From positions 141,226 to 205,225 of the forward strand of contig CALXZL010000002.1 in NCBI GenBank assembly GCA_944393215.1: 64,000 nucleotides of DNA. Reading direction: 5' to 3'. Below, in pieces: positions 29,978 to 46,057 of the stretch (position 1 is the stretch's first letter; every line of letters starts with the position of its first letter). The notes beneath the pieces were generated by a model that did not search any database, was not told where the DNA came from, and worked only from the letters and a program-made list of their open reading frames with translations. The position numbers and the translations under genes were made by a program. The stretch is from an uncultured Alphaproteobacteria bacterium (lineage in GTDB: Bacteria; Pseudomonadota; Alphaproteobacteria; RF32; CAG-239).

Positions 29978-30484
29978 ATGCGCATTATCAATATCAACGG
30001 TCCGATAAATTCGGGCAAAAGTACCATATCAAAACTTTTGGTCAAAACCTTACCCCAAGCTCTTTTTATTGAGGTTGACGACTTACTCTCCGATGAGGAG
30101 CAAGAAATGCTCGGCTTATCTCGTCAAGAAGGTTGGCAAGAAAGAAAAAATCGTCTAAAGCAAAATATCACCCAAGAAAAAAACAAACAACAATATCAAA
30201 ACATCATTTTTGCCTATCCGATAACAGCCAAAACCTATGCCGAGTGGAAACAATGGGAAGATGAGAACACACGCTTCATCAACATCACCTTAGCACCAAA
30301 GTTAGAAGTTTGCCTGCAAAACCGCGGACAAAGAGAGCTGGAAGAAGGCGAAAAAAACAGAATTAAAGAAATGTATCAAGAAGGTTATGCTAATCCTGCT
30401 TTTGCCGATTTGATTATTGATAATTCCACTCAAACACCCGAACAAACCCTACAACAAATTTTAGATTTTTTATCCCTTAATTAA
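29978..30484 (+). CDS. P-loop NTPase / small-molecule kinase-like protein, 168 aa
   Basis: N-terminal Walker A NINGPINSGKSTISKLL. The strong AAGGAG RBS is read from the sequence. Confidence 0.55.
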   Translation: MRIININGPINSGKSTISKLLVKTLPQALFIEVDDLLSDEEQEMLGLSRQEGWQERKNRLKQNITQEKNKQQYQNIIFAYPITAKTYAEWKQWEDENTRFINITLAPKLEVCLQNRGQRELEEGEKNRIKEMYQEGYANPAFADLIIDNSTQTPEQTLQQILDFLSLN

Positions 30485-30961
30485 CACGAACGGATAACCT
30501 TCTTTTGCCTCAAACGGCTCAAATTGGGAAAGTAAGGTATCAAAACAATTTTCATCAATATAAAGCGCGTTATCATCGGTTTGCGTGCGGTTGAGAACGC
30601 GTTGTTTGGCAAGCGCCATATCACACTCCAAAACATGAAAAACAACATTTGGCGTAAGGCTTTTTGCCCATTGATAATATTCTCGGCGCTTGGCTTTGCT
30701 CCAAAAGCCATAATCCAAAATCACATTTTGTCCCTGTTGCACGGCTTGTTTGGTCTGCGCACGAATATAATCATCAACAATTTTATATTTGGCGGCAAAA
30801 TCATCGGGATTGCGCCCAAAACGCTCCTTCATAATCTCATCATGGGTAAAAAGTTTGGCAGGCAATTCCGACGCCAATTTTTGAGCATAAGTTGTCTTAC
30901 CAAAACCTAAAAAGCCACAGAGCAAAATAATTTGCGGTATATGCTTTTGAATATTATTCAT
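30470..30961 (-). CDS. P-loop kinase (AAA_33-like), 163 aa. The start at 30961 has an AGGAGG RBS; the track ORF runs to 31000.
   Basis: Walker A LCGFLGFGKTTYAQKLA, with a Walker B-like VILDYGFW. It is convergent with the upstream kinase-like gene and overlaps it by 15 bp. Confidence 0.55.
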   Translation of the reverse strand: MNNIQKHIPQIILLCGFLGFGKTTYAQKLASELPAKLFTHDEIMKERFGRNPDDFAAKYKIVDDYIRAQTKQAVQQGQNVILDYGFWSKAKRREYYQWAKSLTPNVVFHVLECDMALAKQRVLNRTQTDDNALYIDENCFDTLLSQFEPFEAKEGYPFVLIKG

Positions 30962-31019
30962 CACCCCTCCTTTTTTATAAAAGATAAAAGGAAAATTCAC
31001 TAAAACGCAAGCACAAAAA

Positions 31020-36358: not shown

Positions 36359-37627
36359 ATGCAATGGCAAATGAGCAGATTAAAAAACGGTTTAAGAATA
36401 ATCACTTCCACGCGGGAAAATTTGGAGAGTGTGTCTTTAGGCGTGTGGGTAAAAACCGGTTCGGCTTATGAAAAAGAGGAGATAAACGGCATCTCTCACT
36501 TTTTTGAACACACTTGCTTTAAGGGAACAAAGAAGCGTAACGCGCTGCAAATCAATGAAGAGATTGAAGATGTCGGCGGACAGATGAACGCTTATACCTC
36601 GCGCGAGTTCACCGCTTATTATGCCAAAATGCTTAAAAATGATGCCGAATTGGCAGCCGATGTTATCTGCGATATTTTATTAAATGCCACTTTTCCGGAA
36701 GAAGAATTGGTCAAAGAAAGAGAAGTTGTGGTGCAAGAAATCAAACAGACGATTGATGCGCCCGATGACATTATTTTTGACTATTTTCAAGAAGCCGCTT
36801 TTCCGAACCAAGCTTTGGGACGCTCAATTTTAGGTCCGGCGGAAAAAGTCAGAAGTTTTAACGGAGATACATTAAAAAAATACATTTCCGCCAACTATGC
36901 CGGTGAGAATATGATTGCCTGCGCCGTCGGCAACATTGAGCATGATTCCTTTGTCAAAATGATTGAAGAGCGGATGAGCACTTTGCAGCCCCAAACCAAT
37001 TTCACGCCGGAGAAACAAATCTATCAAGGCGGCTTTTTCATAGAAAAAAGAGATATTGAACAAGCCCATGTCTTGCTTGGTTTTGAGGGAGAGAAATACG
37101 AGAGCAAGAGCTATTATCCGACCGTAATTTTATCCACGCTTTTGGGTGGCGGTATGTCTTCTCGTTTGTTCCAAGAAATCCGAGAAAAAAGAGGCTTGGT
37201 TTATACGGTTTATTCTTTTGCCAATTCACACACCCAAACCGGATTATTCGGTATTTATGCCGGCACCGGAAAAAAAGAGCTGGAAGAATTGATGCCGGTT
37301 GTGGCAACCGAAGTGGGCAAAGTTTGCCAAGAAAAAGTGAGCGAAAGAGAGCTTCAACGCGCCAAAGTCCAACTCAAAGCCAGTATGTTGATGGGCTTGG
37401 AAAGTTGCTCTTCTTCGGCTGAAGTTTTAGCGCGCCAAATGCTCATTTTCAACCGCATTATTCCGATTGAAGAAATGGTTGAGATGATAGAGCAAGTATC
37501 TTTGGATAACATCCAAGACACCGCTTGCAAAATCTTTTCTAAGAAGCCGACCTACACATTGTTGGGTTCTATTGATAAATATATGCCCTATGATGAATTA
37601 TGCCAAGCAATAAAGGTAAAAGCATGA
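36359..37627 (+). CDS. M16 family zinc peptidase (pitrilysin/MPP-like)
   Basis: It has the inverted zinc motif HFFEHTCFKG (HxxEH) and a downstream glutamate-containing region. Length is about 420 aa. Confidence 0.85.
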   Translation: MQWQMSRLKNGLRIITSTRENLESVSLGVWVKTGSAYEKEEINGISHFFEHTCFKGTKKRNALQINEEIEDVGGQMNAYTSREFTAYYAKMLKNDAELAADVICDILLNATFPEEELVKEREVVVQEIKQTIDAPDDIIFDYFQEAAFPNQALGRSILGPAEKVRSFNGDTLKKYISANYAGENMIACAVGNIEHDSFVKMIEERMSTLQPQTNFTPEKQIYQGGFFIEKRDIEQAHVLLGFEGEKYESKSYYPTVILSTLLGGGMSSRLFQEIREKRGLVYTVYSFANSHTQTGLFGIYAGTGKKELEELMPVVATEVGKVCQEKVSERELQRAKVQLKASMLMGLESCSSSAEVLARQMLIFNRIIPIEEMVEMIEQVSLDNIQDTACKIFSKKPTYTLLGSIDKYMPYDELCQAIKVKA

Positions 37628-38556
37628 GTGAGAATTTGACTGTTTATATTGCCGAGCCCAGAGGTTTTTGTGCCGGAGTCAGACGAGCCATTGAGATTGT
37701 TGAACAAGCTTTAAGAGATTATGGCGCACCGGTATATGTCCGTCACGAAATTGTCCATAACAAACACGTGATAGAAGACTTGAAAAACAAAGGCATGATT
37801 TTTATAGATGAATTAGCTCAAATGCAAGACCAAAGCCGCCCGCTCATTTTCTCTGCCCACGGTGTACCGCAAAGCGTGGCTGATGAAACCGATAAGCTCG
37901 GTATTAAGACCATTGATGCCACCTGCCCTCTGGTTGCCAAGGTGCATAATCAGATTAAAAAACTCTATGATGAAGATATGGAAATCATTGTTATCGGCAA
38001 AAAAAATCACGTTGAAATCATCGGCACGGTCGGACAAATTCCAAGCAGCAATAAATTGCACATCATCAATTCTAAAGAAGATATTGAGGCTCTGAATATA
38101 AACCCTGAAAGCAAAGTCGGCTTTGTCACCCAGACCACACTTTCGGTGGATGATACCAAAGAGATTGTCGCTGCATTGAAGCAAAAATTTCCGAGCATTT
38201 CTGCCATGCGCAAAGATGACATTTGCTTTGCCACCACCAACCGCCAAAAAGCCGTCAAAGAAATGGCAAAAGTCGCAGATTTGATAATTGTCATTGGCTC
38301 TAAAAATTCTTCCAATTCTAAGCAACTCAAAGAAGTAGCCTTAAAAAACGGCGCTAAAAATGCCGTGCTGATTGATGATGCTTCAGAGCTTGATTGGGCT
38401 TTGTTAAAAGAATATCAAACCATAGGTATCACTGCCGGAGCCTCGGCACCGGAATATCTGGTGCAAGATTTACTTGACCAATTAAAGTCGCGTTATGATA
38501 ATATTAAGATTATGGATGTAAAAGTAGAGTATGAAAAGGTAAATTTCAAACTCTGA
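37624..38556 (+). CDS. ispH: 4-hydroxy-3-methylbut-2-enyl diphosphate reductase IspH/LytB. The track ORF starts at 37600; the conserved N-terminus begins at MSENLTVYIAEPRGFCAGV.
   Basis: Conserved Cys-containing motifs are present (PRGFCAGV, TCPLV, ICFATTNRQ) with SxN motifs. Confidence 0.93.
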   Translation: MSENLTVYIAEPRGFCAGVRRAIEIVEQALRDYGAPVYVRHEIVHNKHVIEDLKNKGMIFIDELAQMQDQSRPLIFSAHGVPQSVADETDKLGIKTIDATCPLVAKVHNQIKKLYDEDMEIIVIGKKNHVEIIGTVGQIPSSNKLHIINSKEDIEALNINPESKVGFVTQTTLSVDDTKEIVAALKQKFPSISAMRKDDICFATTNRQKAVKEMAKVADLIIVIGSKNSSNSKQLKEVALKNGAKNAVLIDDASELDWALLKEYQTIGITAGASAPEYLVQDLLDQLKSRYDNIKIMDVKVEYEKVNFKL

Positions 38557-38574
38557 CCAAGCGGGAGAAAAACG

Positions 38575-39642
38575 ATGTCACGTGCGGAAGACATTTTTCA
38601 AAAACTCATTTATTTCGGAGAAGATGCCATTGATGAATTTATCATCAACCAACAAACCGAAGAGCTGTTTTTGGACTTCAAGCAAGCCGTATCTGTCGGC
38701 AAAAACTTTGTAACTCTGCATAGAGATGACCGCAAAAATCTCTCCAAAGCCATTTCCGGTTTTGGCAACTCCGAAGGCGGCGTGATAATTTGGGGTGTGG
38801 ATTGCGCCCGCGATAATGAAATCGGCGATGTTGCAAAGGCCAAGGTTAAAGTCAAAAACGTGCACCGTTTTTTAAGCTGGCTGGAAAATGCCATTTCGGG
38901 CTGTACCATTCCCAGCCATAACAAAGTCAGAAATCATATCATCAGCTGTGATAAAAACGGCGATGGCTTTATTGCCACCTATATTCCGAAATCAGAATTA
39001 GCTCCTTTAATGTCCACCACCAACGGCGCCATTTACATCCGCTCCGGCTCCAACAACGTGCCTGCACCTTATTCTGTTATTGCCGGTATGTTTGGAAGAT
39101 ATCCGCAACCCAATGTGGAATTGATTCTGGCAGACAAGCAAATCAAAGTTTTGGATAATGCCGATGAAGATTTGATTTATCCGCTGAATATGAAAAATCC
39201 GCCCAAGAAATATGTCAAAATCAGCTTTGCCATCCATGCCGAAAATGTCAGTAATGTCATTGCCAGAGAGATTTATTTAACTTGCCGCACGGTCAGCACC
39301 GGAAGTGAATATAATAAAATTCGTTTTACCAATTATAATCAAATGGACTCAATCCCCGGCATTGAAAATCAGCTCAATTTGATAACCAAACCGGAATTAA
39401 GACTTCCGCCGCGCGGCATTTTCAAGTTCTGCAACGTGGATATTATATTATCACCTTTTGCCGAAGATGATTTGGTCTTAGACGGCGTGATCGGGGCTGA
39501 TGAATGCGCGCCCAAAGACTTTGACGTGCATATTGCCAAAAACAATCTGCGTTCTTTTGTCGCCAAAGTTTTAAGAAACAGCAAAAATCCCGACAAATTG
39601 TTGAACGAATTTTTCTCGGAATTTTTAATTAATATGGAATAG
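38575..39642 (+). CDS. AlbA_2 (Schlafen-like, divergent AAA) domain protein with an unknown C-terminal domain of about 220 aa
   Basis: ELFLDFKQ plus ISGFGNSEGGVIIWGVD is the diagnostic AlbA_2/Schlafen core signature (LEFK ... AFANS-GG-IIGV). The C-terminal half has no recognisable motifs. Confidence 0.7.
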   Translation: MSRAEDIFQKLIYFGEDAIDEFIINQQTEELFLDFKQAVSVGKNFVTLHRDDRKNLSKAISGFGNSEGGVIIWGVDCARDNEIGDVAKAKVKVKNVHRFLSWLENAISGCTIPSHNKVRNHIISCDKNGDGFIATYIPKSELAPLMSTTNGAIYIRSGSNNVPAPYSVIAGMFGRYPQPNVELILADKQIKVLDNADEDLIYPLNMKNPPKKYVKISFAIHAENVSNVIAREIYLTCRTVSTGSEYNKIRFTNYNQMDSIPGIENQLNLITKPELRLPPRGIFKFCNVDIILSPFAEDDLVLDGVIGADECAPKDFDVHIAKNNLRSFVAKVLRNSKNPDKLLNEFFSEFLINME

Positions 39643-39649
39643 ATAAGAG

Positions 39650-40096
39650 ATGACGGCTATTGAAATTTTTACCGACGGAGCTTGTTCCGGCAACCCCGGA
39701 GCCGGTGGCTGGGGCGTTATTCTGCGCTATGGCGAAACCGAAAAAGAATTAAGTGGCGGAGATGCGCAAACCACCAACAACCGTATGGAGTTGACCGCGG
39801 TAATAGAGGCGCTCAAAGCCTTAAAAAGAGAGTGTGAAATCACCCTTTATACCGATAGTCGTTATGTGATGGACGGTGTCAATGAATGGATGCCTAATTG
39901 GAAGAAAAACGGCTGGAAAACCACCAACAAAAAATCCGCCGTCAAAAATTTGGAACTCTGGCAAGAACTGGATAGTTTGTTACCCAAACACAAAATCAAA
40001 TGGGTTTGGGTTAAGGGACATAACGGACATCCCGAAAACGAGCGTGTAGACAAACTCGCCCGCGACGCCGCCAAAAGCTTTTTAGAAAAAGATTAA
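39650..40096 (+). CDS. rnhA: Ribonuclease HI
   Basis: [20 protein letters not shown], ...TNNRMEL, ...YTDSRYV, ...[15 protein letters not shown] give the DEDD active site and the His of RNase H. Confidence 0.92.
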
Positions 40097-40356
40097 AACT
40101 CATAAATATAAATCAAAACCAAATTGAAAATGGTCAAGATTGCCATCAAAACAGGCTCTTCACGAACGCTGGCAATTCTCTTTTGCTCATAAGAATAAAA
40201 ATAGATAAAAAAGCTATAAAGTGTCACCCATAAAGGATAAGACAACAAATTGCAAACAACAAAGAGATTCAAGAGTGATATTGAAGCATAAGCGACAAAA
40301 GCAAACAACCCCGTTCCAATGGTTTTTATTGTCCGAATATAATCCTCTGCCTGCAT
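40093..40356 (-). CDS. Small membrane protein, 87 aa, 2 predicted TM helices
   Basis: It has hydrophobic stretches. Its stop overlaps the rnhA stop in convergent orientation. Confidence 0.4.
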
Positions 40357-40539
40357 GTTTCAACTCACCTGTTATTGTAAATATGCTTGATTATAATTAA
40401 AACAATCGCTCCAATCAAGTTTTCTCTTTGGGTTACAAAACATTTTTGACAAAATTGTCTATTTTATGCTTGCCACCCTCCTCATTTTGTGATATAAACT
40501 TAAGCAGAAAAAAATATTACTAATTAAAATCATAAGTAT

Positions 40540-40917
40540 ATGGAAAAAGAAATTATTATTAAAAGAATGAAAAATGTATTGAAAGCTATCTGGTACCATG
40601 TAAAATCATGGACAACAGCATTTTTTATGATGTTTCTTATGGTCTCCGGAGTAACTGCTCCGTGGCTATTTTTTGGAAAATGGGCCGATATTATTGCAGA
40701 GATATGGCATGAAGGAAATTTACTTTACATTCCGGATTTGATAGGACTACTTGGATATGTAGCAGGAATAATTATGTTTTCTTTCGTTGCAGTTGTTGGT
40801 GCTATTGCCATAATCTACGCAAGTGGCTATATTATATACAAATTCTACGCTTATTTCTTCAAAAAAGACCGAAATGCCCTTAGGGACATCCTTGATGAGC
40901 TTGTATATAAATTCTGA
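40540..40917 (+). CDS. Small membrane protein, 125 aa, 3 predicted TM helices
   Basis: It has hydrophobic helices and lies in the insertion-like cluster between rnhA and dsbD. Confidence 0.45.
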   Translation: MEKEIIIKRMKNVLKAIWYHVKSWTTAFFMMFLMVSGVTAPWLFFGKWADIIAEIWHEGNLLYIPDLIGLLGYVAGIIMFSFVAVVGAIAIIYASGYIIYKFYAYFFKKDRNALRDILDELVYKF

Positions 40918-40995
40918 AAATAATACCACCACCTCAAAAAACTCACCTTCCGCATGGAAGATGAGTTTTTCTTTTTTAAGTCTAAAAATCTTCAA

Positions 40996-41286
40996 TCATT
41001 TTCCCAAAAATTGATACCAATTTTTAATCGCCAAATGATACAAAAACTCCCAATTTAAAAAGCATATCAACCAAGAAAAAATAAAAATAAGATTTGTTGA
41101 TACCATAAAATATTTATCTTGAAAAAACCAATTCATAATAAAATAAAATGCAATACTCATATACAGCAACACAAACAAAAAAGAAAAAGGAACAGCCTCA
41201 CTCAAACTACAAATAACAGCCCCTCCGATAGCAAAACCACTGGCATCAAGAAAAAGAGCATTCAGAATTTTCTTTAATTTTTGCAT
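40996..41286 (-). CDS. Small membrane protein, 96 aa, immediately downstream of the PG-binding glycine-zipper gene; a putative immunity protein
   Basis: It has 3 hydrophobic helices and sits 28 bp downstream of the 41314 gene on the same strand. Confidence 0.45.
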   Translation of the reverse strand: MQKLKKILNALFLDASGFAIGGAVICSLSEAVPFSFLFVLLYMSIAFYFIMNWFFQDKYFMVSTNLIFIFSWLICFLNWEFLYHLAIKNWYQFLGK

Positions 41287-41313
41287 AGCTTATTCCTTTT
41301 TCATAATATTTAA

Positions 41314-42126
41314 TTATTTGTTTTTATCTTTCTTAGAAAAGACCTCATCCCATACTTTATCGACACCTTTTCCAACACCTTCGTCCATTAAACCTCTGAC
41401 CAGAGGAGTTCCTCCTCGAGCTCCATGCAGAGATTTAACAACTTTATGCCCCAACAGAGCTCCTGTAATGCTTTTCGCTGTTGAATCTGCATAATCCGAA
41501 CTGCCGCTAGCTGAACCAACACCATATGTTATACCTGAACCAACTGCATCAAGCAAGTTTTTTCTTGCTAACTTTTGAGCTGGTGATGAAGCTCTTGTTT
41601 TGCTAAATTTTATCGGAGATGAAATAGCACCAGCCACTTCCATTCCTCCTGTTAATATCGGCGCCTTTTTATATCCCTCTTCCAAAACACTTCTTCTATT
41701 ATCACGGTATTTTTTATATCCGCGCTCAAATGCTTCAGACATACTTTCTTTTTGCTTATTCCACTTTGGATTTAAACTTCCCAAAGCATAACCGACACCA
41801 CCGATAGCTCCTTCAGCTTCATCTGCCCATCCAAAGCTTAGTCCCTGCAAACCTCCTGTTGCTCCATATTCTCCTTTTTTCAATATCTTATTAAACATAG
41901 ATTCCGTTTCACCTTTAGGTTTCATAACGCCATCTATTTTTAAATTTTTATCTTTTTGAAAAGACCTTATTCCATCAAACATTTTTGTATCGACTATGGC
42001 ATCAATTCCCCATTCAGGTTCTTTATAATAGCCAAAATTCTTTAAATGTTTTTTGACATTGATAACATCATCAGAATCAATGTCTGCTGTTGTTTCAGAA
42101 ACTTCTTTTTTCAAATTAAATGGTTG
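41314..42126 (-). CDS. Peptidoglycan-binding domain protein with a Gly-rich (glycine-zipper-like) C-terminal region and no signal peptide; a toxin or bacteriocin-like candidate. The track ORF runs to 42234; the start at 42126 has an AGGAG RBS.
   Basis: The PG_binding_1-like region is VINVKKHLKNFGYYKEPEWGIDAIVDTKMFDGIRSFQKDKNLKIDGVMKPKGET. The C-terminal Gly/Ala/Ser-rich region includes GATGGLQGLSFGWADEAEGAIGGVGYALGSL. A minus-strand terminator hairpin lies upstream at 42160..42198. Confidence 0.6.
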   Translation of the reverse strand, partial: QPFNLKKEVSETTADIDSDDVINVKKHLKNFGYYKEPEWGIDAIVDTKMFDGIRSFQKDKNLKIDGVMKPKGETESMFNKILKKGEYGATGGLQGLSFGWADEAEGAIGGVGYALGSLNPKWNKQKESMSEAFERGYKKYRDNRRSVLEEGYKKAPILTGGMEVAGAISSPIKFSKTRASSPAQKLARKNLLDAVGSGITYGVGSASGSSDYADSTAKSITGALLGHKVVKSLHGARGGTPLVRGLMDEGVGKGVDKVWDEVFSKKDKNK

Positions 42127-42258
42127 CATAAATAAAACTCCTATTAAAATTTTTAAAACAAAAAAAAGCTGATGAAAATTCATCAGCTTTAAAACGAACA
42201 CACTTATCCCAAGTGATAATTCAATATAATACAAAAAGTCTCAAAAGTCAAGGAATTT

Positions 42259-42455
42259 TTTCCTAATCCGCAAAACCTTTAATCACTTTTGTCAGCTCGT
42301 CTTCTGTCAAAATCTCGGGCAAGACCATACCGTCCGGCACACTGCGGCTAAAGATAATATAAAACGGCAAGCCGGAGCGTCCGAACTGCCGTTAGCTGAA
42401 CCAACACCATATGTTATACCTGAACCAACTGCATCAAGCAAGTTTTTTCTTGACA
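42259..42455 (-). repeat. Chimeric duplicated fragment. It is a copy of the dsbD 3' end of about 130 bp at 42259..42390 (about 95% identical to 43352..43480), joined at a 9-bp microhomology (tccgaactg) to a 62-bp copy of an internal segment of the 41314 gene (41505..41566, 1 mismatch). Together they form a small fusion ORF remnant.
   Basis: I aligned the two pairs by eye. cctaatccgcaaaacctttaatcacttttgtcagctcgtcttc[t/g]gtcaaaatctc[g/a]ggcaag... occurs at both 42259 and 43352. ccg[t/c]tagctgaaccaacaccatatgttatacctgaaccaactgcatcaagcaagttttttcttg occurs at both 42391 and 41503. Confidence 0.8.
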
Positions 42456-42574
42456 TATTAGGAATAATATCCTAAATATAATATTATCACTTAGGATAAT
42501 TGTGTCTTAAGTGATTTTTTTGCCCTGTCTAATAAACAGGGCTTTTTTTTACTATTTAACATATTGGAGGAAAA

Positions 42575-42880
42575 ATGAATTTAATACAATATATTGCACA
42601 AGCAGATCCTGAAGAAAAAATCATTTCTAGGGAAAATAATTTCATACAAAATGGAATTAATTGGTATCGCGAATATTCAAAAATAAGTAAATTAAACGAT
42701 AACAGAATTACAGATGAAAACAAACATCAATATATGAGCTGCTTAGCTGGACGAGGAGGAAAAGCAGAAGCTATTGCAGGTTGGGGAATTGGTCTTGGCA
42801 AAGAAGCCATTGATTTAACTAAAAAAACATTAAGCCCAAATGCTCGAAAAAGGTATAATGGTGTGGTAAATATTTTTTAA
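42575..42880 (+). CDS. Small hypothetical protein, 101 aa, with a glycine-zipper motif related to the one in the 41314 protein
   Basis: LAGRGGKAEAIAGWGIGLGKEAIDL resembles GWADEAEGAIGGVGYALGSL of the PG-binding protein. A GGAGG RBS precedes the start. Confidence 0.4.
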   Translation: MNLIQYIAQADPEEKIISRENNFIQNGINWYREYSKISKLNDNRITDENKHQYMSCLAGRGGKAEAIAGWGIGLGKEAIDLTKKTLSPNARKRYNGVVNIF

Positions 42881-43036
42881 AGATAGTCAAAAAGATATAA
42901 AAAACAACTGGAAAGGTTTACAATATGGACTTGAAAATAAAGGAAAATGTATAAATTTACTTGAACAAAAGCTTCCATAATTGACTATTATGAAAATATG
43001 TGAGAATATCTAAAAACAATTATAAGGTATTCTCAC

Positions 43037-43345
43037 ATGCTACAAAAAATTAAATCATTTTTTTACTGGAGCTTTTTCTTTGCAATCTTAACATCAGCCC
43101 TTGTTTTGGGCTTATTCTTTTTTATGCCTGATGAACATACATACAACACCTATCATGGAGATTTCATATATCAAAGCATCAAAATACTCTGCGGAACCGC
43201 ATATCTGATAACTCTTTTGATGCAGTTAGGCCAAAAAACTTCAAGCAAACTGAAACAATATGAAAAAGACCAATATCTTTTAATTGGCGCATCATTACTG
43301 ATAATAGAAATTTTATTTTTATCGGCAACATTACCTGAATTTTAA
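43037..43345 (+). CDS. Small membrane protein, 102 aa
   Basis: It has three hydrophobic helices and ends 7 bp before the dsbD stop in convergent orientation. Confidence 0.4.
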   Translation: MLQKIKSFFYWSFFFAILTSALVLGLFFFMPDEHTYNTYHGDFIYQSIKILCGTAYLITLLMQLGQKTSSKLKQYEKDQYLLIGASLLIIEILFLSATLPEF

Positions 43346-43351
43346 GGTTTC

Positions 43352-46057
43352 CTAATCCGCAAAACCTTTAATCACTTTTGTCAGCTCGTCTTCGGTCAAA
43401 ATCTCAGGCAAGACCATACCGTCCGGCACACTGCGGCTGAAGATGATATAAAACGGCAGACCGGAGCGTCCGAACTGGCGCATAAACTCTAATACTTTGC
43501 GGTCATAATCAGTCCAATCCACATCAATATATTTCACCTTGTAGAACTTTGCCAACTCCTCGATTTTGCTGTTGTCAAACACCGTCACGTCATTAAATTT
43601 ACAGGTCAGGCACCAATCTGCCCCCACCCGCACGATGACGATATTTCCTTCCTTCAAATAAGCATCAATCTGCGCGCGGTCAATTTTCACTTCTTTGGTT
43701 AGAGCCACTTCTGCCATATGGATTTTGAAGGATTTGTCGGCTTGATACAAGCACCCAATTGTCACGATAAGCAACAACACACTAATCACACGACGTACCA
43801 GCTTTTTGGCACTCTGGCGCACGGCTAAATCTTCATTTTGATTTTCGATTGAATCAAAAATCAAGCGCCGCATATAAAACATCAGGAGGAAGAAGGCAAG
43901 CCCTGCCCCCACCCAAAGAACCGTATGCCAATCGGTCTGCGCTTGCAAAATCGAGAGTAACCACACAATGGTTAGAATAAGCATCAAAATCATAAAGGCG
44001 CTGAGTTTTTGCATCCACGGACCGGGTTTGGGCATCAATTCTCCGAGATTCGGATAAGTTGCCAAAAGCAGATACGGCATTGCCAAACCCAAACCGACCA
44101 CTGGCAATAAGATGATGATATCCGTCATCGTGCCGGCAAGCGCAAAACCAAGTGTTGTACCAAGATAAGGCGCCGTACAAGGTGTGGCGACCAAAACAAT
44201 AAACAGCCCTGCCAAAATATTGATAAAATTATCCTGCCGCGGATCTTTATTTTTAAGCCTTTTCAAAATAAATTCCGGTGTTTTGATGTTAATCAGTCCC
44301 AAAATCTGAGCCGTAAAAAACACCATCACAATCGCCATCACCACCAAGAAATATGGGTTTTGGAATTGCATCCCCCAGCCGATTGCCACATCAACGGCTT
44401 TCAGCGCACACAACACGGCGGTTAAAATAACAAACGCCAGCATAATACCCAAAGCCGTATAAGCAAAGCTTTTGCGAATGGCTTTTTCTTCCAACGCCCC
44501 ATATCGGGTTAAGGTTAAAAATTTCAAAGACAACACCGGAAAAACGCACGGCATTAAGTTAAGAATAAATCCGCCGGCAAAAGCCATAATAATCAGCATC
44601 AGGGAAAGCGTTGGTTTATTGGCATCAAAAATGGAAGAAGCTTCGGGAACAATCTGAGTCCGTAGCATATCAAAAGAATTAATCCCGACTGTCAAACTAA
44701 ATTCTTTGCCAATAATGTTTTCTTCCGGATTCCGAACCTTCAAACGTGCAATAATCTCATCATCATTAAGCGTAATTTTCGGACGATAGAAAAGGATATT
44801 GTCTTTAGAATCAACAAATATCTTAACCTTTTCGGGATTTTTCTCGGTGTGAATAACAATTCGCAGTGTTTGAGCTCCGTTGGCATCAGTATCGACCACT
44901 GCTTTTTCAACATGTAAATTTTCATTATAAGCTTTGGGCAAATTATTATATGTGCGTTCAATAAAACTGCTGAAACCTGATCGCAGATAATCATCTCCGA
45001 CATCCAAACTCAACATCGGCTCAAATTCCACCGGATGACACTGATTTTGACCACAGATTGTGGCTTTAACATGAGCTTTGAGTTTCATCGGCTTGGTTTT
45101 ATCTTGCAAAGTAACTGCAACCGGCAAAGCAAAATTACCGACATAACCGAGAATATTATCATCCGTATTATCCACCACGCGTATGGGCATCGGCCACAAA
45201 ACTTGAGCATCCTTCACATTTTCCGAACCGGCAAAATCAAACGACGGCAACAAAATATTTTTTTCAGGACTCCACAAAAGCATATAACCGTCTTTTAATC
45301 TAAAATCCAAAACGGTTTGAATATTTTCGGAATTTATTGAAATTTCATTACTAAGCAGACGAGCATCACCATAAGCACTTTTTTGCCAACCGCCGATTCC
45401 CTTTTTGCCGGTAAAAGGATTATCATACACAATTCCGTAGAAGAAAAGCTTACTCCACTCTAACTCCTGTACCAAAGCCGAAAGGCGGAAAAATCCTTCC
45501 AAATCCTCACGTTCTTTTTGCATTTTCTTTTTATAATAAAGTTCCAGAGCTTCAAAATCGCGTGGATTATTACCATAACTCAAAACCTTCTTAAAATCTT
45601 GAATAATCAAAGGCTGATTTGATCCGGTATCAACATATTCCCAAGTTTTAGGCAAATCATAATCTTCTTCATCCACTTGCAAAGGCGGAGGAGCCGGAAC
45701 GAGCAATTTTTCTTTAATTTCATTATATTTATTTTTAAGAAAGCGATAAAACTTCACCCTGGCACGAATATCATCTGCCTTTTCTTCCTGCTCAATATCT
45801 GTTAAATCAGGATATTTTTCTCGCACCTGAGGTAAAATATCGCCATCAATTTTATCTCCGGGAAAATTTTTTTCAAAAAAATAATAATTACCGAGAATAT
45901 TACCTAATTGTTGATAAATATTAACCTCTTTATCGGCATTAACCTCTTCTTCCTCGGGCAAAAAGTCATAAACAACAGGAGATACGGTTTCTTGAGCATA
46001 AGAAACCGAAGTCATAAAAAAGCCAAAGACATAAAAGAATAATATAAATTTATTCAT
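43352..46057 (-). CDS. dsbD: Thiol:disulfide interchange protein DsbD, long form at 901 aa: periplasmic N-terminal domains, a TM core, and a C-terminal thioredoxin domain
   Basis: It has a signal peptide, a central 8-TM core with conserved Cys (NLMPCVFPVLSL; PCTAPYL), and a C-terminal thioredoxin fold with WCLTCK. Confidence 0.85.
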   Translation of the reverse strand: MNKFILFFYVFGFFMTSVSYAQETVSPVVYDFLPEEEEVNADKEVNIYQQLGNILGNYYFFEKNFPGDKIDGDILPQVREKYPDLTDIEQEEKADDIRARVKFYRFLKNKYNEIKEKLLVPAPPPLQVDEEDYDLPKTWEYVDTGSNQPLIIQDFKKVLSYGNNPRDFEALELYYKKKMQKEREDLEGFFRLSALVQELEWSKLFFYGIVYDNPFTGKKGIGGWQKSAYGDARLLSNEISINSENIQTVLDFRLKDGYMLLWSPEKNILLPSFDFAGSENVKDAQVLWPMPIRVVDNTDDNILGYVGNFALPVAVTLQDKTKPMKLKAHVKATICGQNQCHPVEFEPMLSLDVGDDYLRSGFSSFIERTYNNLPKAYNENLHVEKAVVDTDANGAQTLRIVIHTEKNPEKVKIFVDSKDNILFYRPKITLNDDEIIARLKVRNPEENIIGKEFSLTVGINSFDMLRTQIVPEASSIFDANKPTLSLMLIIMAFAGGFILNLMPCVFPVLSLKFLTLTRYGALEEKAIRKSFAYTALGIMLAFVILTAVLCALKAVDVAIGWGMQFQNPYFLVVMAIVMVFFTAQILGLINIKTPEFILKRLKNKDPRQDNFINILAGLFIVLVATPCTAPYLGTTLGFALAGTMTDIIILLPVVGLGLAMPYLLLATYPNLGELMPKPGPWMQKLSAFMILMLILTIVWLLSILQAQTDWHTVLWVGAGLAFFLLMFYMRRLIFDSIENQNEDLAVRQSAKKLVRRVISVLLLIVTIGCLYQADKSFKIHMAEVALTKEVKIDRAQIDAYLKEGNIVIVRVGADWCLTCKFNDVTVFDNSKIEELAKFYKVKYIDVDWTDYDRKVLEFMRQFGRSGLPFYIIFSRSVPDGMVLPEILTEDELTKVIKGFAD

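Follow-up and report, generated by a model that had tools for sequence, protein, structure and literature searches.

Prokaryotic Schlafens have only recently been found to act as phage-activated tRNases, and the described systems closest to the gene reported here are those of the pSlfn5 class, comprising RorSlfn5, PagSlfn5 and SfoSlfn5 (Perez Taboada et al., Nat Microbiol 2026, PMC13056530). Phage triggers the tRNA nuclease activity of RorSlfn5, which depends on Mn and is lost in the E15A/D20A mutant, a nuclease-dead form that no longer cleaves tRNA; the Ig-like domain of the class binds a phage tail assembly chaperone, and the assembly is hexameric (PMC13056530). The motif that defines prokaryotic Schlafens is Ex4(E/D)xK, and 69.6% of pSlfn genes have known defence genes in the surrounding ±10 kb, while the other 30.4% lack a defence association and "may have non-immune functions" (PMC13056530). 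A Schlafen RNase effector under a fused sensor is also found in Cash (Slfn-Csx15; PMC13462974) and in SLFN-pAgo (bioRxiv 10.64898/2026.05.29.728809). The protein described below would share this arrangement, but the sensor of Cash is a cA4-binding Rossmann-like domain encoded in a CRISPR locus, and that of SLFN-pAgo is an Argonaute with a GHKL ATPase in an Argonaute locus, both unlike the case presented here.

The gene lies in a 64,000-nucleotide stretch of DNA from an uncultured alphaproteobacterium (the window; contig CALXZL010000002.1) and occupies positions 38575..39642 of the plus strand, from ATG to TAG, encoding a prokaryotic Schlafen-type protein of 355 aa; the open reading frame called in the earlier note was confirmed to the nucleotide. 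An 18-nt gap between the stop codon of ispH (38554-38556) and the start of the gene holds GGGAG (38563..38567, plus strand), the ribosome-binding site, 7 nt upstream of the ATG. The match to its family is far above chance level: a word-indexed search returned more than 1,500 homologues and an exhaustive HMMER search 2,288, of which 239 had E < 1e-30. At the species level we collected 80 orthologues, all of them 353-356 aa long and all starting with ATG. No matches were obtained in NCBIfam or among PDB sequences, and PHROGs returned only a "DNA helicase" family, through a weak match of the AlbA_2 type. The PF04326 match and an AlphaFold model (pLDDT 84.7) together predict an architecture of a Slfn/AlbA_2 nuclease domain followed by an Ig-like domain and a helical hairpin. 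"ATP-binding protein" is a poor name for the family, because we saw no sign of ATP binding and all evidence points to a Schlafen/AlbA_2 nuclease.

PF04326 (SLFN_AlbA_2) was the only Pfam domain detected in the protein. It covers aa 30-164 (38662..39066, plus strand) and was matched with 41.1 bits (E = 3e-10; gathering cut-off 25.3 bits) over profile positions 2-117 of 118, which bears out the AlbA_2/Schlafen identity that the earlier note had proposed from short motifs. The structural N-domain is wider, extending over about aa 1-175, and has the AlbA_2/Schlafen alpha-beta fold. It begins with a two-helix cap (aa 1-28, MSRAEDIF..., 38575..38658, plus strand; helices 3-14 and 16-24 in the model) that lies outside the Pfam domain and has 62% of its columns invariant among the 80 orthologues. 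In 317 of 386 fetched proteins, a set that includes about 120 unrelated RnhA sequences, residue 29 is the first of the catalytic motif, and this indicates that the cap is common to most of the wider family. The predicted catalytic motif itself, E29-E-L-F-L-D34-F-K36 (38659..38682, plus strand), fits Ex4(E/D)xK, so that the protein has the domain of more than 100 aa with an intact motif (here 135 aa) by which pSlfns are recognised. Further downstream, the core motif S61-GFGNSEGGVIIWGVD-76 (38755..38802, plus strand) aligned in a profile-to-PDB comparison with the SLFN5 C-lobe segment ...SAFANTEGGYVFFGVH, and its residues S61, G62, F63, G68, G69, W73 and G74 are invariant in the family alignment. 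The motifs quoted in the earlier note are thus present with slightly different letters, "LEFK" reading L33-D34-F35-K36 (LDFK) and "AFxNSxGGxIIxGV" having the real form G62-FGNSEGGVIIWGV-75.

The human Schlafens are antiviral enzymes that cleave RNA. The mammalian N-terminal Schlafen nuclease domains (SLFN11, SLFN13, SLFN14, SLFN12 and SLFN5) share the Ex4(E/D)xK motif with our protein, and its segment SGFGNSEGG...WGV aligns with the catalytic C-lobe of SLFN5. However, they form a two-lobed horseshoe, whereas our protein has just one AlbA_2 lobe, lacks both linker and helicase domains and is only 13-17% identical to them. The profile-to-PDB sequence search gave only marginal SLFN5 matches (E about 0.6, aa 52-75), and since these are not significant, the alignment of the catalytic glutamates with those of the mammalian proteins rests on motif and fold.

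The C-terminal part had been described as about 220 aa long and unassignable. About 190 residues follow the Pfam domain, and in the structure model they form an Ig-like beta-sandwich of about 9 strands (aa 181-320, 39115..39534, plus strand), a putative sensor or partner-binding module, and a C-terminal helical hairpin (aa 322-351, 39538..39627, plus strand; helices 322-334 and 339-351). These also provide the accessory domain that a pSlfn has in addition to its Slfn domain. The hairpin is the most variable part of the protein, with column entropy peaking at aa 331-355. Neither HTH, GHKL ATPase nor winged-helix domains were found in the protein with Pfam and NCBIfam. A transcription-factor reading was rejected because there is no HTH domain. 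The protein also differs in this respect from the AlbA_2-HATPase_c_4-wHTH proteins ("divergent AAA" or "RecG-like" putative regulators, such as DIP2311, 3lmm and 2kyy), which carry the GHKL ATPase and winged helix that it lacks, its own C-terminus being a beta-sandwich.

The predicted composition of a Slfn and an Ig-like domain matches the pSlfn5 class, as judged by domain composition, motif form and description. In both cases a single polypeptide of similar size (355 aa compared to about 380 aa), encoded by a stand-alone gene, combines an N-terminal Slfn/AlbA_2 nuclease with a C-terminal Ig-like beta-sandwich; the catalytic motif has the E-x4-D-x-K form, corresponding to the E15/D20 pair of RorSlfn5; and the predicted sensor is akin to the integrin ectodomain and to complement MG/Ig-like domains. 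The differences concern details of the protein and, above all, its genomic setting. The motif starts at E15 in RorSlfn5 but at E29 here, behind the conserved two-helix cap, and RorSlfn5 is larger (43.1 kDa), whereas our protein has the additional C-terminal hairpin. Unlike pSlfn5 genes, the gene stands outside defence islands, fixed clade-wide in a housekeeping operon in the slot of thrB, and purifying selection on its Ig-like domain is of ordinary strength. The protein belongs to an already known kind, and it is the evolutionary status of this copy that is special.

The gene is the third in a co-directional string on the plus strand. The string opens with an M16-family peptidase gene (36359..37627; PF00675 and PF05193, and synteny), which overlaps the start of ispH by 28 nt; ispH (LytB) follows at 37600..38556 (PF02401, 323 bits), and downstream of the Schlafen gene a 7-nt junction, ATAAGAG (39643..39649), leads to rnhA, encoding RNase HI, at 39650..40096 (PF00075, 178 bits). 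Both flanking genes are as the earlier note described them. The Pfam content of the surroundings consists of efflux, DJ-1, M16, IspH, RnhA, DsbD and AlgH, and no mobile-element genes were detected by Pfam beside the gene in the window. PADLOC and Pfam revealed no known defence genes within ±10 kb, and PADLOC run on the protein and 10 neighbouring proteins (27.7-49.6 kb) gave no credible match. In addition, no model of PADLOC-DB v2 (2023) matched the protein, which, like the lack of known defence genes within ±10 kb, is an observation against an immune role.

In the relatives the gene was equally settled. The rnhA gene lay directly downstream of it in 79/79 species loci selected by the Schlafen gene, at a spacing of -1 to 13 nt, and ispH lay immediately upstream in 42/80, that is, in about half of the clade. 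The pair with rnhA was kept also where the upstream context had shifted, as in locus L038, which adjoins lptG/lptD. When metagenome loci were anchored on RnhA instead, the gene adjoined rnhA in 6/6 loci where RnhA identity was 71% or higher and in 0/73 where it was 66% or lower, and loci anchored on three RnhA clusters had it beside rnhA in 30/30, giving 36/36 RnhA-anchored clade loci in all. The sampled loci included 10 different human samples of one species, with the gene present, and the copies were intact in every relative examined; we saw no loss, pseudogene or presence/absence polymorphism. The gene is a permanent core gene of a housekeeping operon in an uncultured gut and rumen Alphaproteobacteria clade, the GTDB order RF32, with more than 80 species. 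The idea of a variable insert or lone island, for which the earlier note had suggested examining related strains, does not agree with this uniform position. The outcome that the earlier note had named as contrary to its proposal, universal conservation as a transcriptional regulator, was encountered by half: the protein is conserved in all relatives, but not as a regulator, as the lack of an HTH domain indicates. Fixation throughout the clade without loss, down to IspH identities of 50-60%, is atypical for anti-phage genes and is a further observation that speaks against an immune role.

The earlier note placed the gene as inserted between ispH and rnhA; the position is right, and it can be given more precisely as the slot that thrB holds in other Alphaproteobacteria. 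These have the order ispH-thrB-rnhA, and the slot gene of the outgroups was identified as thrB (TIGR00938, 356-389 bits). In 19 outgroup loci the spacing between thrB and rnhA was mostly a -4 overlap (ATGA). The Schlafen gene sits in the former thrB slot and keeps, across the 7-nt junction, the translational coupling of thrB to rnhA. The locus records an in-place gene replacement, thrB by a Schlafen gene, in which the coupling to rnhA was preserved.

Across 68 distant orthologues the mean identity was 87% for the N-domain and 61% for the C-domain, compared to 77% for RnhA, 69% for DJ-1, 65% for M16 and 58% for IspH, which ranks the N-domain first in conservation within the neighbourhood. The dN/dS ratio was 0.04 in the N-domain and 0.10 in the C-domain, a value like those of IspH and M16, and the dN values were 0.09 and 0.32, respectively. 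Invariant columns made up 57-62% of the N-terminal half and 19% of the C-terminal half. The N-domain is under stronger purifying selection than the housekeeping neighbours. The divergence of the gene follows that of its neighbours, with no discordant C-domain distances and no allele swapping seen, although the congruence of the distance matrices is only moderately informative because most species pairs are at similar, near-saturated distances. As in pSlfn5, a nuclease half that is far more conserved among orthologues than the Ig-like half was observed, and the contrast between 87% and 61% mirrors the pSlfn5 pattern of a conserved nuclease and a variable sensor, which speaks for a sensor reading of the C-domain. 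At the same time, the Ig-like domain evolves at the rate of an ordinary enzyme (dN/dS 0.10), unlike the sensor expected in an arms race, and this speaks against an immune role.

The wider family presents a different picture. One distant member follows a Type IIG restriction-modification enzyme (786 bits) at a distance of 36 nt, another lies beside a fused PARIS AriAB (501 bits) and a third near a Type I REase and MTase, so that a defence gene was found within ±10 kb at 3/7 sampled distant loci. Two further members are on mobile elements, one on a recombinase/integrase element and the other on an inovirus-like contig. The family is dispersed taxonomically, with members from Nitrospirota to archaea, and the majority of its clusters hold one sequence each; between phyla the N-domains, including those of members in defence islands, are about 50-57% identical. 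The distant family is sporadic and behaves as defence or mobile cargo. The suggestion of a one-gene defence module is borne out for the wider family, whereas this gene is fixed and has no known defence gene within ±10 kb.

The most likely interpretation is that the gene encodes a trigger-activated RNase that has become a vertically inherited core gene. In its specific form, for which we see about even chances, the protein would be a pSlfn metal-dependent RNase with an Ig-like sensor, trigger-activated and anti-phage, fixed as a vertical core gene. By analogy with RorSlfn5, it would be made constitutively in an inactive and probably oligomeric state. Its Ig-like domain would recognise one particular protein as the trigger, in all likelihood a structural or assembly protein of a phage, and this contact would activate the nuclease, which, with Mn2+, would cut the anticodon arms of tRNA or other RNA, leading to translation shutdown and a lower phage yield. 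In an ancestor of the clade, a member of the sporadic defence-island and mobile family took the thrB position in ispH-thrB-rnhA, and strong purifying selection has since kept it as a core gene passed on vertically. Domain identity, motif conservation, fixation, gene-order history and selection regime come directly from the analyses, and nuclease activity, tRNA as the substrate, activation by a trigger and the immune role are inferred.

Possible, at somewhat poorer odds, is that the nuclease was co-opted for an endogenous, non-immune role after its capture into the ispH-rnhA operon, for example stress- or starvation-triggered tRNA or rRNA cleavage, RNA quality control or RNA turnover, with the Ig-like domain binding a host protein. 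The gene is intact in all species and strains sampled, and the housekeeping operon that holds it is constitutive and has no defence genes close by; the identity of its N-domain exceeds that of RnhA, DJ-1, M16 and IspH; the C-domain has a housekeeping-like dN/dS and no discordant distances; and nearly a third of pSlfn genes, the 30.4% mentioned above, are not defence-associated (PMC13056530). However, entrenchment could also account for the fixed position, since translation of rnhA depends by coupling on the gene upstream of it, whichever that is, as with thrB. Moreover, strong conservation of the N-domain is a trait of the whole family, including the members in defence islands, and the C-domain plainly evolves faster than the N-domain, which is also the pattern of the defence-active pSlfn5. 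A literature search that asked whether Schlafens are linked to RNase H, or whether the prokaryotic ones have housekeeping roles, returned nothing relevant, and thus gave no endogenous function for any prokaryotic Schlafen.

If the gene is indeed a trigger-activated RNase turned core gene, it would represent either hard-wired immunity of the whole clade or, more radically, an endogenous, trigger-controlled tRNA/RNA nuclease of normal physiology, and it would parallel the animal Schlafens that became fixed host genes. We would tentatively go further and suggest that this could be the first recognisable prokaryotic Schlafen nuclease that has passed from the mobile defence pool to a vertical core gene, replacing thrB, as hard-wired immunity or as an endogenous RNase. 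Since about 30% of prokaryotic Schlafens are outside defence islands, the locus offers a clean, well-sampled case of this fraction, with an intact motif and the Ig-like "sensor" architecture. It is a tractable test of whether Schlafen effectors can become core or "domesticated" bacterial genes, and it bears on what Ig-like sensors recognise outside an obvious arms race.

We consider it improbable that the function of the AlbA_2 domain is limited to binding DNA or RNA, in the manner of SLFN5 or the SAMD9 DNA-binding domain, and that the protein is a regulator or chaperone rather than a nuclease. The third acidic active-site residue of mammalian Schlafens has no invariant counterpart in the family, a few members carrying K, S, A or G at the nearest position, D76, and annotation as a regulator is common among bacterial AlbA_2 proteins. 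Against this, Ex4(E/D)xK is invariant or nearly so in more than 130 diverse members, as expected for a retained active site: in alignments of 36 and 135 diverse members E29 and K36 are invariant, and position 34 is D in at least 90% and otherwise E. The counterparts of E29 and D34 are needed for tRNA cleavage by RorSlfn5 (PMC13056530), and the protein has PF04326 and a beta-sandwich C-terminus with no HTH or other DNA-binding regulator domain.

Still less probable is a partnership with RNase HI in one complex or pathway, such as R-loop or primer processing. The invariant adjacency to rnhA at close spacing, which persists next to lptG/lptD, would be in line with it. However, the coupling is a property of the slot, because in the 19 outgroup loci rnhA shows the same coupling to thrB, an unrelated gene for homoserine kinase, and for this reason it was rejected as evidence of a functional partnership; moreover, none of the 7 distant members nor the member on the viral contig adjoins an RNase H gene. 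A recent, strain-variable one-gene defence island, the reading implied by the words "inserted" and "lone gene", would suit the sporadic wider family with its links to defence genes and mobile elements, but it is hardly credible for this gene, being contradicted by its fixation, its synteny in 80 species-level genomes and 36/36 RnhA-anchored loci, its divergence in step with the neighbours and its GC content, which is equal to that of the flanks (0.41-0.45). Finally, while tblastn with the protein gave no match in phage genomes, the search of plasmids returned matches in plasmids of the Bacillus cereus group, which were confined to the N-domain.

The gene under study, hereafter X, is an ATG-to-TAG ORF of 355 aa at 38575-39642 (+), exactly where the earlier note had placed it, and a Shine-Dalgarno sequence (GGGAG) lies 7 nt upstream of its start, within the 18 nt that separate X from the stop codon of ispH. 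Its GC content (0.41-0.45) is the same as that of its flanks, and its neighbours were identified with Pfam as IspH/LytB (323 bits), RNase HI (178 bits), an M16 peptidase and a DJ-1/PfpI protein. The M16 peptidase ORF (36359-37627) overlaps the listed ispH ORF (start 37600) by 28 nt (37600-37627); the Pfam LytB match starts at residue 15, so that translation of ispH may truly begin at an internal Met, a few codons further on. The note's AlbA_2/Schlafen call was correct, as PF04326 (SLFN_AlbA_2) covers aa 30-164 of X with 41.1 bits (gathering cut-off 25.3, E = 3e-10), and the signature that it quoted is present with slightly changed letters, as L33-D-F-K36 and G62-FGNSEGGVIIWGV-75.

The AlphaFold2 model of X (mean pLDDT 84.7) falls into four parts. 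A two-helix cap (aa 3-24) comes first, then an alpha/beta domain that ends near aa 175; an all-beta domain with some nine strands (aa 181-320) and a C-terminal helical hairpin (aa 322-351) follow. In Foldseek searches the N-domain, i.e. the nuclease-type half, matched SLFN14/11/13/5, whereas the C-domain matched integrin ectodomains, ClfA and BcpA. Because the structure searches assign both halves, the C-terminus, which had been called unassignable, is modelled as an Ig-like beta-sandwich. Residues E29, K36, S61, G62, G68, G69, W73, G74, G131, P144, R156, G158, F173, P177 and G307 are invariant in two alignments of the X family (A1, 36 representatives of 50%-identity clusters; A2, 135 members), and position 34 is D in at least 90% of the sequences and otherwise E. 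With E29 and K36 invariant and position 34 being D or E, E29-x4-D34-x-K36 fits the Schlafen-defining Ex4(E/D)xK catalytic motif and is the predicted active site. D76, the residue closest to the third acidic position of the mammalian Schlafens, is not invariant, being K, S, A or G in a few members of A1. X had no matches in PADLOC, NCBIfam or PDB sequences; a profile search against PDB sequences was marginal only (E ~0.6), with the SGFGNSEGG...WGV segment aligned to the SLFN5 catalytic C-lobe. In the gut-clade orthologues the Ig-like domain opens with an insertion of ~18 residues, LDNADEDLIYPLNMKNPP (aa ~190-210; 39142-39204), which is missing from most of the wider family and is modelled less confidently (pLDDT 65-70).

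Among 5,930 prokaryotic Schlafen proteins with 55 domain compositions, the Slfn + Ig-like combination constitutes the pSlfn5 class, 3.9% of those catalogued (Perez Taboada et al., Nat Microbiol 2026; PMC13056530). RorSlfn5, a characterised protein of this class, protects E. coli from phage T5. It binds the tail assembly chaperone of the phage through its Ig-like domain and, once activated, is an oligomeric (hexamer) Mn2+-dependent tRNase cleaving the anticodon arm; the E15/D20 double mutant is nuclease-dead (PMC13056530). The authors likened its sensor to integrin ectodomains and a complement C5 Ig-like domain, and noted a conserved nuclease half and a variable sensor half in pSlfn5 (PMC13056530). 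The model of X matches the comparators given for the RorSlfn5 sensor, its N-domain and C-domain (87% versus 61% identity) follow the same pattern, and E29/D34 have the E-x4-D spacing of E15/D20. However, the motif offset (29 in X, 15 in RorSlfn5) and the size (355 aa versus 43.1 kDa) differ, which suggests distinct sequence families; the match of X to pSlfn5 is one of domain composition, and homology is putative.

An exhaustive HMMER search retrieved 2,288 relatives (239 with E < 1e-30), usually of 335-365 aa and with the same two-part architecture; the named ones belong to Nitrospirota, Thermodesulfovibrionia, Pseudomonadales, Planctomycetota, 'Ca. Wunengus', and Pacearchaeota and Thermoproteota MAGs, and the family clusters are mostly singletons. 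At the seven distant loci that were examined, rnhA never adjoins the family gene. One member each was found 36 nt downstream of a Type IIG restriction-modification enzyme (PADLOC 786 bits), directly after a fused PARIS AriAB (501 bits), near a Type I REase and MTase, adjoining HEPN and UvrD/GajB-like genes, near a BrnT/CopG pair, on an element that also carries serine recombinase and integrase genes, and in a neutral context. Moreover, a 6.9-kb inovirus-like viral contig (L169:3717-6279; IMGVR_UViG_3300024968_000033) encodes a full-length member (339 aa, 35% identity, PF04326) adjoining an RstB-like protein and a replication protein of filamentous-phage type, which has both the N- and the C-terminal G2P domain, and the family can thus move as inovirus cargo. 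The family as a whole resembles single-gene defence or mobile cargo of sporadic occurrence, in line with the guess in the earlier note; for the copy studied here, which is fixed in an operon, the idea of a lone inserted defence module is only partly correct. Proteins encoded on 66 Bacillus cereus-group plasmids (e.g., NZ_CP020745.1:106848-107396), annotated as 'ATP-binding protein' or 'hypothetical', match only aa 1-183 of X (33-39% identity), including the N-terminal helical cap; they presumably combine an X-type nuclease module with a different C-terminal domain.

A scan in which each GTDB species was represented by a single genome gave 104 matching stretches and placed X in 80 species-level MAGs. 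These belong to uncultured Alphaproteobacteria of gut and rumen, among them 'CAG:495', 'Ca. Scatocola' and MAGs labelled Azospirillum or Rhodospirillaceae. All 80 copies are intact (353-356 aa, ATG start), and X lies directly upstream of rnhA, the RNase HI gene, on the same strand in 79/79 loci with downstream sequence, the spacing from X stop to rnhA start being -1 to 13 nt. The gene directly upstream of X is ispH in 42 loci, M16 in 29 and others in 9. Since these loci had been chosen through X, the test was repeated on loci anchored on RnhA. In metagenome contigs X was present at 6/6 informative loci where the identity of RnhA was 71% or more and at 0/73 loci where it was 66% or less. For three RnhA clusters (82-88% identity), X was upstream in 30/30 places, among which are ten different human-gut samples of one species. 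No presence/absence polymorphism of X was detected in the 79 X-selected and the 6 + 30 RnhA-anchored loci, and the variable presence among relatives, for which the earlier note had suggested a check, was not borne out. In the 29 species where ispH is missing from the position upstream of X (e.g., the compared loci L017, L019-L021, L024, L026 and L035), M16 abuts X; at L038 the X-rnhA pair is neighboured by lptG/lptD. The pair is intact through at least two upstream rearrangements.

When the window was compared with 68 distant orthologous loci, the mean amino-acid identity was 87% for the X N-domain, 77% for RnhA, 69% for DJ-1, 65% for M16, 61% for the X C-domain and 58% for IspH. The dN/dS values, computed on 11 closer pairs, were 0.033 for RnhA, 0.038 for the N-domain, 0.093 for M16, 0.101 for IspH and 0.105 for the C-domain. 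Both halves of X are under purifying selection, ordinary to strong. As the C-domain distances follow those of M16 (residual SD 0.06) without large outliers, this comparison gave no sign of sensor-allele exchange.

We consider it about an even call that X is an RNase of the Schlafen type that senses through an Ig-like domain and acts in a pSlfn5-like way, and that it was captured from a mobile defence family and kept as a core gene. X would be latent and probably oligomeric; binding of a specific protein by the Ig-like domain would switch it on, and the activated enzyme would cut tRNA or other RNA. The family member would have been captured into the housekeeping operon at the base of the gut clade and then retained. 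Domestication for a non-immune role, the main rival, is possible, albeit less probable: X is retained universally, no defence genes were found within ±10 kb of it, its sensor domain evolves at an unremarkable rate, and about 30% of pSlfn genes were left unexplained in the pSlfn study (PMC13056530). That X, with its predicted active site, is a non-catalytic binder of nucleic acid appears improbable. The molecular type of X is already known; what is unusual is its evolutionary status, i.e. fixed, operon-embedded and, in N-domain identity, more conserved than its essential neighbours.

In outgroup Alphaproteobacteria (L096-L167, e.g., L103:4005-5001, L100 and L141) the ~1-kb gene between ispH and rnhA is the APH-type homoserine kinase gene thrB (TIGR00938, 356-389 bits); X therefore sits in the slot that thrB held in an ancestral ispH-thrB-rnhA arrangement. 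A search of the window and of all 80 X loci found no thrB; in the gut clade this gene was either lost or relocated. In 19 outgroup loci thrB and rnhA are translationally coupled, mostly by ATGA overlaps (4 nt with the rnhA start). The tight X-rnhA junction is thus inherited from the slot and is no evidence for a functional partnership with RNase H, which leaves X as an RNase HI partner very unlikely. As rnhA relies for its expression on the gene upstream, X is entrenched in its position; this can explain the positional fixation but not the low dN/dS, for which the X protein itself must be under selection.

The notion that X is a recent gene of a variable island is contradicted by the data and hardly credible; the variable spot of the neighbourhood is the stretch at 40097-43351. 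Elsewhere in the window, a 176-aa P-loop kinase-like ORF (30470-31000, -) beside AcrB/HlyD efflux genes matches AAA_33 (79 bits) and, weakly, Zeta_toxin and KTI12; it was rejected as a defence gene, its sole PADLOC match being a weak P-loop one, PDC-M51B (E = 3e-4). The ~3.2-kb stretch at 40097-43351 is low in GC (0.29-0.38 versus 0.41-0.45 around) and lies between rnhA and the convergent dsbD (43352-46057). It holds small predicted membrane ORFs (40093-40356, -; 40540-40917, +; 40996-41286, -), for which no Pfam or PADLOC matches were obtained, and also encodes a 306-aa protein (41314-42234, -) that has a peptidoglycan-binding domain. In the relatives compared, what comes straight after rnhA is dsbD (L185-L204) or a single 249-aa ORF (L175).
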